From: an uncultured Candidatus Actinomarina sp.
GTDB lineage: Bacteria > Actinomycetota > Acidimicrobiia > Actinomarinales > Actinomarinaceae
Reading direction: 5' to 3'
DNA length: 64,000 nucleotides
Assembly: GCA_902578135.1 (NCBI GenBank)
Contig: CACHBU010000001.1
Location: 33,932-97,931, forward strand
Part shown: one piece after another, positions 43,848-50,162 of the stretch
Numbering within the stretch: the first letter of the stretch is position 1
Layout: each line of letters opens with the position of its first letter
The notes under the pieces: generated by a model
What the model was told of the DNA's origin: nothing
Database searches by the model: none
The model's input: only the letters and a program-made list of their open reading frames with translations
Made by a program: the position numbers and the translations under genes

Positions 43848-44321
43848 TTATAGATTTATACTACCTACTCTTTTAACTTTTTGACCATTAATTTTATATT
43901 CAGACTTATTCAACTCCAGCTCTAAAATTTCATACAAAGGCTCTATAACAAATAATCTATTTTTCCAGTCATAATGTGGAATAGTCAAATTATCTTGATT
44001 GACTTCGTAATTGTTAAAAAATATGATGTCGATGTCAATTAACCTAGGTCCATATCTAAATGTAGATTCTCTCCCCATATCATTTTCTATTATCTTTATA
44101 CCTTCTAACAATTGATCTGGAGACCCTTTGTATTCAACTTCCAAAATCATATTTAAAAAACTATTTTGGTTTTCAAAAAGTAATGGTTCTGTTTCATAAA
44201 TAGAAGATGCTTTAACAATTTTCATTTTTTTAGAAAGTTCCAATATTGCTTTTGTAAGGTTGTCTGTCCTATCTCCGATATTTGATCCTAAAGAAAGATA
44301 AATACTATTTAAATTTTTCAC
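43848..44321 (-). CDS. folK: 2-amino-4-hydroxy-6-hydroxymethyldihydropteridine diphosphokinase
   Basis: YLSLGSNIG, YETEP, FLN, GPRLIDIDII and IPH motifs. Start placed at GTG 44321. Confidence 0.95.
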   Translation of the reverse strand: MKNLNSIYLSLGSNIGDRTDNLTKAILELSKKMKIVKASSIYETEPLLFENQNSFLNMILEVEYKGSPDQLLEGIKIIENDMGRESTFRYGPRLIDIDIIFFNNYEVNQDNLTIPHYDWKNRLFVIEPLYEILELELNKSEYKINGQKVKRVGSINL

Positions 44322-44676
44322 TGTAAGTAACTGATAAATCATTTGTTTTTTCTTTCAAAATAGTATCTGGTTTATGAACTGTCACGATGATTTCAAATAT
44401 TTTTACATTACTTTTGGAATTATATTTTTCATAAATATCTTGGGTGATTTTTTTTGATAATGTCTCGATAAGGTTAAAGCTTTCAGTTTTGACAATTCCA
44501 ATTACATCATCCACTACGTTTTCATAGTTAATTGTGTCATATATTTCATCACCTTGAAAATTATCTATAGTAATTTTTACATCTATAAGGAATTTTTGAT
44601 CACTTGACTTTTCAATTTCGTAGATTCCGTGTTTCCCTGATGTTTTGATCCCAAGAATATTTATGTCATATGACAT
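44305..44676 (-). CDS. folB: Dihydroneopterin aldolase
   Basis: HGIYEIE..Q.F.ID, DTINY, NLIETL and VTVHKP motifs. Confidence 0.9.
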   Translation of the reverse strand: MSYDINILGIKTSGKHGIYEIEKSSDQKFLIDVKITIDNFQGDEIYDTINYENVVDDVIGIVKTESFNLIETLSKKITQDIYEKYNSKSNVKIFEIIVTVHKPDTILKEKTNDLSVTYSEKFK

Positions 44677-44679
44677 TTT

Positions 44680-45150
44680 TTAAGTATTTGGAATAAGGGC
44701 AATAGCCTTTGGAGATAGTGGCTTCTCTAATATCTTTTCTAATATTGTTCTAGCTAGAATTGGATCGTCTAGAAGTTCAGAATAAATTAAATATCCAGCA
44801 AGTATACCTGGCACCTCTTCATCTAAGTACTCTCTGTGTATTAGAAGTTTTCTTTCTTTGTCTGTTAGTGCTTCTTTTATTGCCTCAAATATTATGTTTA
44901 ACGACTCCTTTGGGACATCATCTGCAAGAGGATAGTGGTAAGTCCTGAATCCTACCTCTTGGTAGTTCTTTAAATTGAAATCTGAATCTAACAAAGAAAA
45001 AATTGCATTTATTCCTTGACTCTTAATCCATTGAATTTCTTCTTCTCTTCTAATTTTCCTAGGTGTTAATCCACCACCACCAATACATTCAGAAACTGCT
45101 AGTTTTCCTTCAATAATCCAGTTAAAATCATTTGGTTTTAAACCAGCCAT
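44680..45150 (-). CDS. Dual-specificity-phosphatase-fold protein lacking the CX5R catalytic motif
   Basis: FNWIIEGKLAVS...GINAIFSLL...YHYPLAD matches the DSP/CDKN3 pattern; HCxxGxxR is replaced by HREYLDEE. Start behind AAAGGA. Confidence 0.7.
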   Translation of the reverse strand: MAGLKPNDFNWIIEGKLAVSECIGGGGLTPRKIRREEEIQWIKSQGINAIFSLLDSDFNLKNYQEVGFRTYHYPLADDVPKESLNIIFEAIKEALTDKERKLLIHREYLDEEVPGILAGYLIYSELLDDPILARTILEKILEKPLSPKAIALIPNT

Positions 45151-45187
45151 ATTTCCTTTCTGTAAATACAATAATAGCTTACACTAA

Positions 45188-45934
45188 TTACGAATTTGTT
45201 AGATGCATTCTTACTAGTGAAACCCCAGAATCAACACAGTGTTTGAATAAATCAGAATTTGACATTGGAATATTTTTAATAAATTTCTTTTTTGAATACC
45301 CAACAATCAAGGGAAAGCCATCTTTAAGTTCTTTGATGTTCATCAATAAATCAACAGAATCAGATAAATTTTTACCAAACCCTAAGCCTGGATCAACTGC
45401 AATTTGTTCTTCCCTAACTCCCAAACCTATTAGTGATTTTATTTTTGAATTTAAGTGTTCTTTTACTTCCTTCACGACATCTTTATAAATCATTTTATGA
45501 TGCAAAGATTCTGATTTAGGATGTCTATGAACTAAGATGATTTTTGATTTTGAATCAACGGCTATTCGAATCATTTCTTCTTTCATGAAGCCACTTACAT
45601 CGTTGATTATTTCAAAATTATTTTCAACTGCATGGTTTGTCACAATTGGATTAAATGAATCAATTGAAAATGAAAATTTATTTTGATTTGTATTTATAAA
45701 ATAATTTAACCTTTTAATCTCCTCTTCAGTTGTGACACTATCAAATCCTGGTTTTGTTGAAGCACAACCAACATCAATAAAATTGATATTTTTTTGATTT
45801 GCAGAATGCAATAACCTATTTAATTTAGCGTCCTTATTAAATACGCCATCACCTGTAAATGAGTCATTAGATAAATTTATAATTCCTAATATTTTTGAAT
45901 TATCTGAGGATAATGCACGATTCCAATTGGACAA
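45188..45934 (-). CDS. folP: Dihydropteroate synthase (divergent)
   Basis: GIINLSNDSF, STKPG, SID, INDVSG, DPGLGFGK, GYSKK and RMH motifs. Confidence 0.9.
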   Translation of the reverse strand: MSNWNRALSSDNSKILGIINLSNDSFTGDGVFNKDAKLNRLLHSANQKNINFIDVGCASTKPGFDSVTTEEEIKRLNYFINTNQNKFSFSIDSFNPIVTNHAVENNFEIINDVSGFMKEEMIRIAVDSKSKIILVHRHPKSESLHHKMIYKDVVKEVKEHLNSKIKSLIGLGVREEQIAVDPGLGFGKNLSDSVDLLMNIKELKDGFPLIVGYSKKKFIKNIPMSNSDLFKHCVDSGVSLVRMHLTNS

Positions 45935-45937
45935 TTT

Positions 45938-46498
45938 CTAAAAATTTAATAAGGCTTCATTACGAAGCGTATGGTCGATTTCGTAGATTCCAGTACTGTA
46001 AGTTGTTTCAAATTCAGTTTGAGAATTTTCAATATTTAACAAACTTGAACACATGTGATTTGCACTTATTTTTACCATCACACCTTCAGGATCTAGTGCA
46101 TTTTGTATTTCAATTGCTATATTTTTTGTTAGAGTTTCCTGCAAAGTTAAATTATTTGAAAGCATATTTACAAGTTCACTAAATTTAGAAACTCCAGCTA
46201 TTTTGCTATTTGGATAAACAGCTATATTGACCAAGCCTGTAAAAGGAAGTAGGTGATGCTCACATAAGCTAACAAAATTTATTCCTTTTAAGTAAATAGG
46301 TTGATTGTGTTCTACATTTTCCAGATTAATTAAAATTTCAGATGGTGAGTGCGATTTGTGTAATTTTAACTCTATTTGCTCAAGAAACTTTTTGGAAAGT
46401 TTCAGTATTTCTTTTTCTGATTTGTCAGTCTTTGTTTTTAAAAATTCGAAAAGAGCAATCTCAATATTGCTCTTAGTTTCATTTACAGAACTCATCAA
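45938..46498 (-). CDS. folE: GTP cyclohydrolase I family protein (divergent)
   Basis: [17 protein letters not shown] and HMC motifs; conserved position between ftsH and folP. Confidence 0.85.
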
Positions 46499-48354
46499 GC
46501 AAGCCTTAAGCTTTTTCCAGAACCGGTTATTTTTACTTTTGCAATTGTTTTAAAAATTTCTGATACTTCATCTTTGTTTAATGTCTCTTTTTCCATTAAC
46601 TGTTTGACCATAGCATCCATTTGTTTCTTAAATTTCTTTAGAATCTTTCCAGCAATTACATGTGCATCGTTTAATAAATTTCTTACTTCGTCGTCAATAG
46701 AAGAAGCTATTTCATCGGAATAATCTTGTTGTCTTCCGTAATCTCTTCCTAGAAATACTTCATTAGATCCTTTACCGTAAAGCATTGGCCCTAGCTTTTC
46801 GCTCATTCCAAATTCCATAACCATTCTTCTAGCAATGTCTGTAGCTTTTTCTATGTCATTTGAGGCACCTGTAGTAGGATCAGCAAAAATTAATTCTTCT
46901 GCCACTCGACCTCCCATCAGCATTGCAAGCCTGTCTTTAAGCTCAGCTTTGGATGAAAGATATTTTTCACTATCAGGGAGTGCTTGAGTATAGCCTAAAG
47001 CTCGACCACGGGGAATAATGGTAACTTTGTGGATAGGATCAGCATTGGGAAGGGCCCATCCAACTAAGGCATGGCCTGTTTCATGATAAGCGATAATTAA
47101 TTTTTCTTCTTCGGTCATTACTTGGCTTTTCTTTTCTGGACCGGCCATTACTCTATCTATGGAATTTTCAATATCTGAAATACCAATCGTTTTCTTATTT
47201 TTTCTTGCTGCTAATAAAGCTGCTTCATTTAATAAATTTGCTAAATCGGCGCCGGTAAAACCAGGTGTTTGTTTTGCTAATGTTTCAAAATTAACATTTT
47301 TTGCTAATGGCTTATCTTTTGCATGAACTTTAAGTATTTGTGTCCTTCCAGATAAATCTGGCCTTCCAACAATGACTTGTCTATCAAATCTACCAGGCCT
47401 AAGAAGTGCTGGGTCTAAAACATCTGGTCTATTAGTCGCAGCCATAAGGATTACTCCCTGATTTGCTTCAAACCCATCCATCTCAACTAAAAGTTGGTTT
47501 AATGTTTGCTCCCGCTCGTCGTGACCTCCACCTAAACCAGCTCCCCTCATTCTTCCAACTGCGTCAATTTCATCGATAAAAATTATTGCTGGAGATGCTT
47601 CTTTAGCTTTTTTAAATAGATCTCTAACTCTACTGGCTCCAACTCCGACAAACATTTCAACAAAATCTGATCCTGAAATACTAAAGAATGGAACTCCTGC
47701 CTCTCCTGCTACTGCTTTTGCTAAAAGGGTTTTTCCGGTTCCCGGTGGTCCAACAAGTAGAACTCCTTTTGGAATCTTTGCTCCTAACTTATTAAATTTT
47801 TCTGGAGACTTAAGGAATTCTTTAATCTCTTCGAGTTCTTCTTTAGCTTCTTCTACACCAGCGACATCTTTAAAAGTTACTTTTGGGGATTCTTCATCTA
47901 GTTCTTTAGCCTTTGATTTTCCAAATTGCATTATTTGATTTCCGTTTGATCTGACTTGAGAAAACATATAAAACATAAAAGCAGCTAGAAATAGCCAAGG
48001 TAAAAATGCAAAAAAGTAGTCCTGAAATCCTGCAGGTTCTGTGTCTGTGTTCAAAATAATATCTTGGTCTACAAGGAGTTGAAAGACTTCTCCTTCAAAG
48101 CCTTCTGGATATTCTGTTTGATAAATTGTGTCATCATTATTTAATTTAAATTCGACAAGATTTGACTGTTCTTTTATGGTTGCTTCAGATACATTTCCAG
48201 ACTGTATGTCGTTTTTAAATATTGTAAAAGATTTACTTTCTGGTGAGTTTACAGTTGAATTATATTGCTGTACTCCAAAAAATATTAAAAGACCAAGTCC
48301 AACATAAAGAAGAAAAGACCTGTTGTTGTTTTTGTTTCCTTTTTTATTTTCCAT
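46495..48354 (-). CDS. ftsH: ATP-dependent zinc metalloprotease FtsH
   Basis: Two TMs, [17 protein letters not shown], second region of homology [10 protein letters not shown], and HETGH. Confidence 0.98.
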
Positions 48355-48397: not shown

Positions 48398-48910
48398 TTA
48401 TGACAAAACACCAAGGAAAGGGAGCTCTCTATATTTTCCTTCATAATCGAGACCATATCCCACAACGAATTCTGGTCCTATCTCAAATCCTGAATATTTT
48501 ATGTCTACTGGTTCAATTGCAATATCTTTTTTAATAAACATACACAATATTTCAATGCTTTTTGGGTTTCTAGATTCAAGCAAATTTTTTAAGTGAGATA
48601 TAGTCAAACCTGTATCAAAAATATCTTCGACAATCAATATATTTTTTCCAGTTATATCTATATCAAGATCCTTATCAATTTTTATTTGACCAGTAGATTT
48701 TGTTCCTTCATAAGATTGGATGCTCATAAATTCGAATGTTACATCTACATTGAGCTGCTTTGCTAAGTCGCTGATAACAATAAATGCACCTTTTAGGATA
48801 CCAACTATTACTAGTTCTCCTCCCGAGTAATCTTTGTTGATTCTTTCAGCTAGCTCTTTAACTTTTTGTTCAATTTCAACTTGTTCAATAAGGACTTTAG
48901 ATACTTTCAA
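48398..48910 (-). CDS. hpt: Hypoxanthine-guanine phosphoribosyltransferase
   Basis: GILKGA, LIVEDIFDTGLT and FVVGYGLDY motifs. Confidence 0.97.
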   Translation of the reverse strand: MKVSKVLIEQVEIEQKVKELAERINKDYSGGELVIVGILKGAFIVISDLAKQLNVDVTFEFMSIQSYEGTKSTGQIKIDKDLDIDITGKNILIVEDIFDTGLTISHLKNLLESRNPKSIEILCMFIKKDIAIEPVDIKYSGFEIGPEFVVGYGLDYEGKYRELPFLGVLS

Positions 48911-50162
48911 AATTGCTCTTTTCTATTGAAGTTGTAATTATATGTTTGTTGTTTTCTGAATCAAAATCTTTTGCTAAATCACTTTTTCTAACCCCTGGAA
49001 TCCATATGACTTCATTATCAATTTTTGCAATAGGCCAAACTTCTCTGAGAGGTTCTTTAACTCCAAAAGACCTCAATACCTCAGATACTTTCTGTGATGA
49101 ACCATTAATTGAAATCTTGTCACCACTAGAGATTGAAGATATATTGAAATTTTCCACTAAATTTTGTGGTACTCCAAGTTTCCAGTTGTTTGAATAATTA
49201 CATTTTGTAGTATGTTGAAAATTAAAATAACCAAAAGTCATGTCTTCATCAGAATTCAATTTCCACATTTCTTTTTCAATAAATACAACTAAACCAGATT
49301 GATTAGAAACCACCCAGTTTTTGTGATAACTTACATGGCTTCTGCTAGTAATCGATGAATATATTTTTTTCAAATCATCTCCTTGGAGACCACTTTGTCC
49401 AATAGATGAAGAGATTAAAGAAATTAAGTAATTTGATCTTGAATCATTTTCCTGAATAAGTAAAAGCGGCACTTCAAAATATCCTTTTGCAAACTTAATA
49501 AATTTTCTTACTTCTACTTTATTTTCAAGCAGTACCTCTATTTCCAAAATTAGATTTGAAATTTTTTTATTTATCTCTCCCGGAAATCTTTCATCTACTT
49601 CTGGTATTAATTGGTTTCTAATCCAATTTCTAGAAATTTTATTATTTTGGTTTGTAGTGTCTTCAGTAAATACAATATTATTTTTTATTGCATAATCTTG
49701 GATCTCAGACTTCTTTGTATTTATTAGTGGTCTTAATAAATTTTCATTTTCAGCTTTAATTGATGTAAGCCCTTTTAGCCTGGTGCCTCTAAATAGGTTA
49801 ATCAGAAAAGTTTCAACTTTATCATCTTTGTGATGACCTGTTACTAATATTTCTTCTTCTCTAAGATTATCAAATAATAAACCGTACCTTTTTTCTCTCA
49901 TTTTTGTTTCGGAGGCGTTTTCTTCTAAATCTGAAATGATGTTTTCATGTCTTGTTTCAAGATGTTTTGCAATTTTTTCGGCAGATTTTTGTAATAAACT
50001 TGAGTCTTTCTGATTATGATTTACAAAAATTGTTCTATAAGACAAATTTAGTTCGTTAAAAATTGAAGCTAATACTGCACTATCAACACCTCCGCTGAGT
50101 GCTAAAACATATTTATTATTCTTATTAACTAATTTGAGTATCTTATTTTTAATATCTGTCAT
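48897..50162 (-). CDS. tilS: tRNA(Ile)-lysidine synthetase
   Basis: SGGVDS PP-loop, GHHKDD..ET, RPL and RNWIR motifs; conserved position upstream of hpt. Confidence 0.94.
   Translation of the reverse strand: MTDIKNKILKLVNKNNKYVLALSGGVDSAVLASIFNELNLSYRTIFVNHNQKDSSLLQKSAEKIAKHLETRHENIISDLEENASETKMREKRYGLLFDNLREEEILVTGHHKDDKVETFLINLFRGTRLKGLTSIKAENENLLRPLINTKKSEIQDYAIKNNIVFTEDTTNQNNKISRNWIRNQLIPEVDERFPGEINKKISNLILEIEVLLENKVEVRKFIKFAKGYFEVPLLLIQENDSRSNYLISLISSSIGQSGLQGDDLKKIYSSITSRSHVSYHKNWVVSNQSGLVVFIEKEMWKLNSDEDMTFGYFNFQHTTKCNYSNNWKLGVPQNLVENFNISSISSGDKISINGSSQKVSEVLRSFGVKEPLREVWPIAKIDNEVIWIPGVRKSDLAKDFDSENNKHIITTSIEKSNFESI

Follow-up and report, generated by a model that had tools for sequence, protein, structure and literature searches.

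Type IA GTP cyclohydrolase I (FolE) is a textbook enzyme and drug target, and the arginines that bind the triphosphate of its substrate are treated as defining residues. The canonical enzyme converts GTP to 7,8-dihydroneopterin triphosphate and is a D5 homodecamer in which three subunits build each active site. In the Thermus thermophilus enzyme, the phosphates are bound by K134, R137, R183 and R64 (PMC4005822), and in human GCH1 the beta and gamma phosphates are coordinated by R216, which also keeps its own loop ordered (PMC7750480). By motif position, the human R216 corresponds to R185 of Escherichia coli FolE, the numbering of which is used below for canonical positions. The plant bimodular GTP cyclohydrolase I, reportedly described by Basset et al. 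in 2002, functions in folate synthesis although a domain lacks part of the canonical substrate-binding and catalytic residues; its two tandem domains are thought to complement each other. In the reduced genome of Chlamydia, FolE is absent and the pterin branch is fed, without a pyrophosphatase, at dihydroneopterin monophosphate (H2NMP) by RibA (GTP cyclohydrolase II) and the promiscuous isomerase TrpF (PMC4161248). Here we describe a FolE homologue encoded in a 64,000-nucleotide stretch of DNA (hereafter, the window) from an uncultured Candidatus Actinomarina sp. (assembly GCA_902578135.1, contig CACHBU010000001.1, positions 33,932 to 97,931), in which the arginines equivalent to E. coli R139 and R185, hereafter the clamp, have been replaced. 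The whole order Actinomarinales, a group of very abundant, genome-streamlined marine bacteria, appears to rely on a single FolE of this kind. A variant of this known family that spans an entire order, in a lineage of ecological importance, is new.

The variant shares with the canonical type IA enzymes of E. coli, T. thermophilus, Mycobacterium tuberculosis, Listeria monocytogenes and human the Pfam family, the predicted fold, the Zn, His, Ser-Lys and Gln-Glu residues, and it has the same operon position next to folP, folB and folK. Unlike these enzymes, it lacks R139, the R185-G186 loop, R147, R153, Y125 and the Thr-Pro of the TPxR motif, and carries invariant residues of its own. In contrast to the plant bimodular enzyme, it consists of a single domain encoded by a single gene, with no second copy to supply the missing residues. 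The Chlamydia bypass resembles the possible use of GMP by the variant, which is discussed below, but it depends on unrelated enzymes, whereas the Actinomarinales clade keeps a FolE homologue. FolE2 (GTP cyclohydrolase IB) and QueF are likewise T-fold proteins acting on guanine-derived substrates; the variant has the FolE Zn site and belongs to neither, scoring 19.4 bits against the QueF model TIGR03139 (cut-off 86.9).

Family assignment and active-site residues

The open reading frame of the folE variant (45938..46498, minus strand; stop codon TAG at 45938-45940) comprises 186 codons from a TTG. Its second codon, an ATG at 46495 that overlaps the stop codon of the upstream ftsH by one base (TGATG), is the likely true start and yields a protein of 185 amino acids, in agreement with the gene calls for near-identical metagenome proteins. 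The nearest homologues come from marine metagenomes, including those of Tara. The source assembly (0.99 Mb in 27 contigs, 87% complete) and the window (approximately 32% GC) resemble the order as published, with genomes of about 1 Mb and 33% GC (PMC10205998).

Membership in the GTP cyclohydrolase I family is supported by a match to Pfam PF01227 (GTP_cyclohydroI) over residues 28-183, with 134.6 bits against a gathering score of 27 (E=3.3e-39). An AlphaFold2 (AF2) monomer model of the protein (predicted local distance difference test score, pLDDT, 73) displays the T-fold with N-terminal helices seen in solved FolE structures. In Foldseek, this model matched 9p8z, 4uqf, 1wm9 and 6z86 with template modelling (TM) scores of 0.79-0.85 over 180-190 columns; the hits included M. 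tuberculosis FolE (9p8z, TM 0.80 over 183 columns) as well as the Listeria, human and Thermus enzymes. The score stays under all four NCBIfam FolE cut-offs, namely TIGR00063 (112.5 versus 181.6 bits), NF006826 (124.6 versus 162), NF006825 (121.6 versus 174) and NF006824 (90.9 versus 202), so that annotation could misjudge whether these organisms are folate prototrophs.

The variant was aligned with the rat and human FolE chains from the PDB and with E. coli FolE and 66 canonical representatives, L-INS-i being used for the pairing of R65. Residue counts within the clade refer either to the 32 sequences of the alignment or to a tabulation of 50 species-level sequences. The residues of the ring-opening chemistry are kept. 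The C79-E80-H81-H82 motif (46253..46264, minus strand, as are all features below) corresponds to the Zn ligand Cys110, Glu111, the catalytic His112 and the Zn ligand His113, and is invariant in the clade save for a Glu-to-Lys change in two species. In the segment H148-M-C150-S-S-L-L154-N155 (46034..46057), equivalent to H179-x-C181-M-x-M-R185-G186, the catalytic histidine and the Zn cysteine are retained. Thus, the Zn ligands C79, H82 and C150 and the catalytic H81 and H148 are invariant in 32 to 50 orthologues. The guanine-recognition pair Q120-E121 (Q151-E152), located in S114-N-N-L-T-L-Q120-E121-T122 (46133..46159), is also invariant in the clade. The Ser-Lys pair is preserved in S104-K105-F-S-E108 (46175..46189), the counterpart of S135-K136-x-x-R139, with a basic residue at position 136 in 48 of the 50 species (44 Lys, 4 Arg, 2 Gln).

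The triphosphate-binding side of the site is altered. The canonical SKLAR has become SKFSE (R139 to E108), CMxMRG has become CSSLLN (R185 to L154 and G186 to N155), and the RRLQVQER of the canonical (S/A)RRLQVQER motif reads NNLTLQET, with R147 replaced by Asn, Q149 by Thr and R153 by Thr; the canonical Y125 is absent as well. Across the 50 species, position 139 is Asp in 36, Glu in 10, Lys in 2, and Asn and Gln in one each, that is, acidic in 46, whereas position 185 is non-basic in 48 (34 Leu, 8 Met, 3 Thr, 2 Ile, 2 Lys, 1 Asp). Position 186 is occupied by Asn (36), Ser (11), Asp (2) or Gly (1), position 183 is Asp or Glu in 37/50, and position 182 is Ser in 49/50. Lys occupies position 153 in 20/32 sequences. 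Of the basic cluster R65/K136/R139/R185, the protein of the window keeps basic residues at 65 and 136 and has none at 139 and 185. At position 65, K37 (46388..46390) is representative of the clade, which has Lys in 27 and Arg in 5 of the 32 sequences and hence a basic residue in all 32.

These alignments bear out an earlier interpretation made from the letters of the window (the sequence-only reading) as regards the retained CEHH, SK, QE and HxC motifs, and confirm the loss of the R139 and R185 arginines together with the changes in SKLAR, RxQxQER and CMxxRG. Its claim that the arginine of TPxR had also disappeared stands in part: the Thr-Pro is lost, but R65 is not, as it aligns with the conserved Lys/Arg and the change is conservative.

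Among the 30 positions conserved in at least 85% of the canonical sequences, 21 are kept and 8 are lost in the variant, counts to be read with the caveat that the presence of R139 and R185-G186 was the criterion by which canonical sequences were selected; the lost positions include all three highly conserved arginines. Judged from this comparison, the pattern of residue loss is not chance. Conversely, nine residues are newly invariant in the clade (K45, P67, Y69, S151, T166, Y172, D175, A182 and N185, in variant numbering). Two of them lie in H64-N-Q66-P67-I-Y69 (46292..46309), a lid segment that directly precedes the first T-fold strand and places new residues, under selection, near the active-site ceiling. 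P67 and Y69 are found in 32/32 sequences and H64 in 30/32, and Q66 is invariant in a 15-sequence alignment; the canonical enzymes carry Y/H in place of H64, M in place of P67 and I/V in place of Y69. The homologous human region, 115-130, is a lid that closes over the bound substrate (PMC7750480).

Conservation, selection and origin of the variant

The order was represented by 65 genomes, 64 of them from one genus and one from its sister genus. A whole-genome search detected a FolE homologue, one copy each, in 54 of these, including 12/12 high-quality ones; the source genome has a single PF01227 match. Identity to the protein of the window falls to 43-45% across the order, with the frame intact in 50 species. 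Nei-Gojobori ratios of nonsynonymous to synonymous substitution rates (dN/dS) of close pairs mostly range from 0.03 to 0.18, with noisy values of 0.38 and 0.47 for two near-identical pairs. The sister genus displays the same pattern (SKYSD, SNAFEIQER and HICSQVDGR), and the remodelling therefore predates the split of the genera. By contrast, all eight FolE genes compared from other families of the class have the full canonical pattern. Thus, the orthologue alignment that the sequence-only reading had called for shows that the substitutions are fixed across the order under purifying selection.

The same reading had also suggested a search for FolE2 or a second folE. A search for FolE2 (PF02649, GCHY-1) gave no match in the source genome or elsewhere among the 65 genomes of the order. 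No second FolE was found either, each genome with a homologue having one copy in a protein search that picks up the canonical FolE of class relatives at ~1e-20. The absence of a backup enzyme, together with the fixation under purifying selection, refutes the alternative that folE is a decaying or already inactive gene, to which we assign a very small probability. Residues invariant in canonical FolE have indeed been lost, and the depletion of arginine in the protein is extreme, as might be expected of decay. However, the frame is intact in 50 species that diverge down to 43-45% identity, most close pairs have low dN/dS, the same replacements are fixed rather than scattered, and the catalytic residues are invariant.

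Coupled substitutions in two congeners argue in the same direction. In L019 (genome G009) and L022 (genome G001), CEHH is changed to CKHH (E111K) together with a Glu at position 153, K136Q is accompanied by a Lys at position 139, and a Lys occupies position 185. These swaps look like compensatory pairs, in which case the site would still be constrained and basic residues would have returned secondarily to the phosphate site, L019 being nested within the genus in the tree.

In a maximum-likelihood tree, the Actinomarinales clade is monophyletic (Shimodaira-Hasegawa-like approximate likelihood ratio test, SH-aLRT, 99) and sits on the longest internal branch, of 1.14 substitutions per site. It groups with three other non-canonical FolE-like proteins, P0091 and P0122 among them (SH-aLRT 95); this grouping may be a case of long-branch attraction.

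FolE-like proteins with an incomplete clamp also occur outside the order. A profile search of 1.84 billion representative proteins yielded 8,535 FolE matches, of which the best 150 are biased towards similarity to the clade. Among these 150, 142 non-clade sequences could be scored; 111 carry both R139 and R185 and 12 carry neither, which suggests that the latter may represent a wider, undescribed FolE-like class. Several of the 12 (among P0064-P0209) also lack the Ser-Lys pair, with motifs of the GIGD and GFGE types, and the set is heterogeneous. Four proteins, P0067, P0069, P0127 and P0141, resemble the variant in having lost R139 and/or R185. They still have the Zn site, Gln-Glu and the Ser-Lys lysine, and most of them the whole Ser-Lys pair, but their lineages are diverse and their similarity to the variant is only partial. 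P0141 carries R139E alone and is otherwise canonical. P0067 (L049, 6001-6570) combines R139E and R185N with an intact R65/K68 helix and R147; it is encoded on a contig of 24% GC, in the context tilS-ftsH-folE-folP-glmM-glmS, by an unrelated organism, and lacks the invariant residues specific to Actinomarinales. P0067 thus seems to have lost part of the same clamp independently, and the clamp, as far as these alignments tell, has been lost more than once. Given the losses in P0067 and P0141, some apparent FolE genes can do without R139 and R185. We considered a horizontal origin of the variant from another arginine-poor FolE lineage and rejected it, because no clear donor emerged: P0067 groups with canonical enzymes, and P0091 and P0122 have unrelated contexts, the former adjoining a short-chain dehydrogenase gene and the latter a Sua5/YciO-family gene, neither within a fol operon; the contigs that carry P0069 and P0096 are too short to show their neighbours. 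Our literature search found no paper on this loss of the clamp, on folate in Actinomarina, or on FolE activity with GDP, GMP or guanosine.

A drift driven purely by AT richness or arginine economy does not suffice to explain the replacements. The variant has one Arg in 186 residues, which is below the first percentile of the open reading frames of its genome (median 3.1%), and the mean Arg content of the clade FolE proteins is 1.1%, compared to 6.1% in the canonical representatives. Position 65, and position 153 in 20/32 sequences, did change from Arg to Lys as composition bias predicts; however, such bias predicts neither Asp/Glu at 139 nor Leu/Met at 185. A direct reading of the operon's translations finds the arginines of the FolK motifs GR...GPR...D.D and H......R intact, and in FolP no changes beyond STRPG to STKPG and SRK to SKK, its VR.H arginine being kept. 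Even the FolE of the 24% GC organism still has 8 Arg. FolB contains no Arg in 123 residues; within the operon the depletion is extreme in FolB and FolE, and not in FolK, FolP, gene X (see below) or FtsH.

Substrate and binding mode

Because all residues for the ring chemistry are conserved, we take the variant to be an active cyclohydrolase. We infer its catalytic activity, substrate identity and binding mode alike from sequence comparison, by which it would be a selectively maintained, Zn-dependent type IA enzyme feeding FolB, FolK and FolP. The imidazole ring of a guanine ribonucleotide would be opened by the canonical machinery (the C110/H113/C181 Zn site, H112, H179 and Q151-E152), while the phosphate-binding entrance would have been rebuilt in the ancestor of the order. 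The Lys at the R65 position and S135-K136 would be the surviving contacts, the clamp on the beta and gamma phosphates being gone and positions 147 and 153 freed from the arginine constraint. Phosphates are not a formal requirement of ring opening, Amadori rearrangement or ring closure.

We favour the reading that GTP is still used and bound in a remodelled or weaker, possibly Mg-bridged mode, although we put its chances at no better than even. GTP would be converted to dihydroneopterin triphosphate and gripped through the guanine, the ribose and the proximal phosphate, either with lower affinity or through a Mg2+ ion that the new carboxylates bridge. Weak binding and a high Km could be tolerated by an enzyme that works slowly, at low flux and amid abundant GTP, in a proteome under strong arginine economy. 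The abundance of GTP in cells, the two basic contacts that are kept, the partial losses of the clamp in other lineages and the two congeners with Lys at 139 and 185 are all consistent with continued use of GTP. If so, the triphosphate clamp would be dispensable, and there would be a second way for the enzyme to bind its substrate, possibly bridged by a metal.

Several considerations weigh against this interpretation. The change appears to exceed weakening, with charge reversal at 139 (46/50), an acidic 183 (37/50), a hydrophobic 185 and the loss of G186, and a triphosphate, with its four negative charges, should be repelled by such a site in the absence of an intervening metal. Since the canonical enzyme works without a divalent cation (PMC6718149), Mg-bridged binding would be a novelty in itself. 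Furthermore, mutational bias alone is no explanation for the replacements, given that in the same operon the phosphate-binding arginines of FolK are intact and FolP has merely exchanged Arg for Lys, and the score of the variant is below every NCBIfam FolE equivalog cut-off.

The same features bear on a second interpretation, the one put forward in the sequence-only reading, which we hold to be live but less probable; in it, the substrate would have changed to a guanine ribonucleoside with fewer phosphates (GMP, possibly GDP or guanosine). The product would be dihydroneopterin monophosphate or dihydroneopterin directly, and a genome of 1 Mb would not need the FolQ/NudB step. Structurally, the carboxylate at 139 and the hydrophobic residue at 185 would close the old beta/gamma site, and the Lys at 65 and S135-K136, which are kept, would hold a single phosphate. 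The replaced residues are those tied to the distal phosphates (PMC7750480; Thermus R137/R183, PMC4005822), the charge reversal is fixed in 46/50 species, and the replacements are acidic or hydrophobic rather than the outcome of neutral drift. The remodelled G186 loop and the new invariant lid residues P67 and Y69 point to binding that was re-selected rather than relaxed. Since canonical FolE works without a divalent metal (PMC6718149), carboxylates have no role in it, and the Chlamydia RibA and TrpF provide a case in which H2NMP is made and both FolE and FolQ are bypassed (PMC4161248). Against a changed substrate, cellular GTP greatly exceeds GMP and guanosine, and the two congeners with Lys at 139 and 185 suggest that phosphate binding may persist or have been regained in these species. 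To our knowledge, canonical FolE is specific for GTP, and we know of no FolE-type precedent for a less phosphorylated substrate. Nar et al. are said to have proposed in 1995 that the gamma-phosphate activates Ser135 for the Amadori step; an Asp or Glu at 139, one helical turn from Ser135, might replace this substrate-assisted role. A less phosphorylated substrate would amount to a new specificity and a shortened folate pathway, with the first cyclohydrolase of type I that works without the triphosphate and the FolQ step.

The other enzymes of the pathway do little to decide between GTP and a less phosphorylated substrate. The Nudix repertoire is minimal, with two genes in the genome, neither reaching the NudB cut-off, as would be expected if the pyrophosphatase step were bypassed. 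However, one of the two is a generic MutT-like gene that could serve as FolQ, and no NudB equivalog was detected in any genome of the class, including relatives with canonical FolE. We thus regard the missing NudB/FolQ as uninformative with respect to a bypass. In a first look, Nudix candidates numbered 0-6 per Actinomarina genome and 4-15 in other members of the class (relatives G001-G060). Similarly, PTPS/QueD, which would need the triphosphate product, was not found in the genome, in line with a changed substrate, but it is present in only 3 of 24 class relatives, and canonical FolE is kept nonetheless. Loss of the queuosine/PTPS branch as a release from the triphosphate product is therefore not supported.

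A third reading, which we consider unlikely, holds that the protein has been neofunctionalised or has left folate synthesis, acting on another guanine molecule, in another pterin or deazapurine pathway, or in a structural role, with pterin supplied by a RibA bypass or by salvage. The scores below all FolE equivalog cut-offs and the long stem branch could be understood in this way, and the genome encodes RibBA, which is to be expected for riboflavin synthesis. The grouping with three non-canonical proteins (SH-aLRT 95) and the location of P0091 and P0122 outside fol operons could also be cited for it, but that grouping may reflect long-branch attraction. Against this reading, folE lies between ftsH and folP, apparently translationally coupled, in every species examined, and relatives with a canonical FolE share this gene order. 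The 65 genomes offer no other candidate for the first pterin step, the guanine-recognition and ring-opening residues of the variant are invariant, and no PTPS/QueD was found in the genome.

Operon context and the neighbouring genes

On the minus strand of the window, the gene order is tilS, hpt, ftsH, folE, folP, gene X, folB, folK and panC, and the order ftsH-folE-folP-X-folB-folK is conserved in 30 species and likewise in class relatives. Directly upstream of folE, ftsH (46495..48354) ends in the 1-nucleotide overlap described above; on the other side, folP, encoding dihydropteroate synthase (45188..45934), begins at a TTG 3 nucleotides past the folE TAG. The stop/start overlap and the 3-nucleotide spacing at these junctions suggest that ftsH, folE and folP may be translationally coupled. 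Further downstream are gene X (44680..45171) and the genes for two pterin-branch enzymes, folB (44305-44676) and folK (43848-44342).

Upstream of ftsH are hpt (48398-48910) and tilS (48897-50162). The sequence-only reading had taken the upstream hpt, together with a dead phosphatase next to folE, as signs of a rewired pterin pathway. For hpt, this was not borne out, as the ftsH-folE linkage recurs both in class relatives and on the unrelated 24% GC contig. The arrangement tilS-hpt-ftsH-folE is the usual one in actinobacteria.

The supposed dead phosphatase is gene X, the product of which (163 amino acids) has no family match but resembles a dual-specificity phosphatase (25xa_A, E=3e-4), with a P-loop that reads HREYLDEE instead of HCxxGxxR and thus lacks the Cys and the Arg. 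Homologues 39-44% identical to it, with the loops HREAVDD, HRETIDD and HHEEFGD, are present in three class members (L043, L045 and L046), where they lie in folE-(folP)-X-folB-folK operons with a canonical FolE. Since X with the same degenerate loop thus accompanies canonical FolE, it dates back to the ancestor of the class and has not evolved in step with the FolE variant, and its part in a rewired pathway falls away. Gene X looks instead like an ancient, class-wide component of the folate operon. Across the genus, its identity is 81-99%, compared to 45-95% for folE and folP; it is far more conserved than folE, folP or folB, and comparable in this respect to FtsH.

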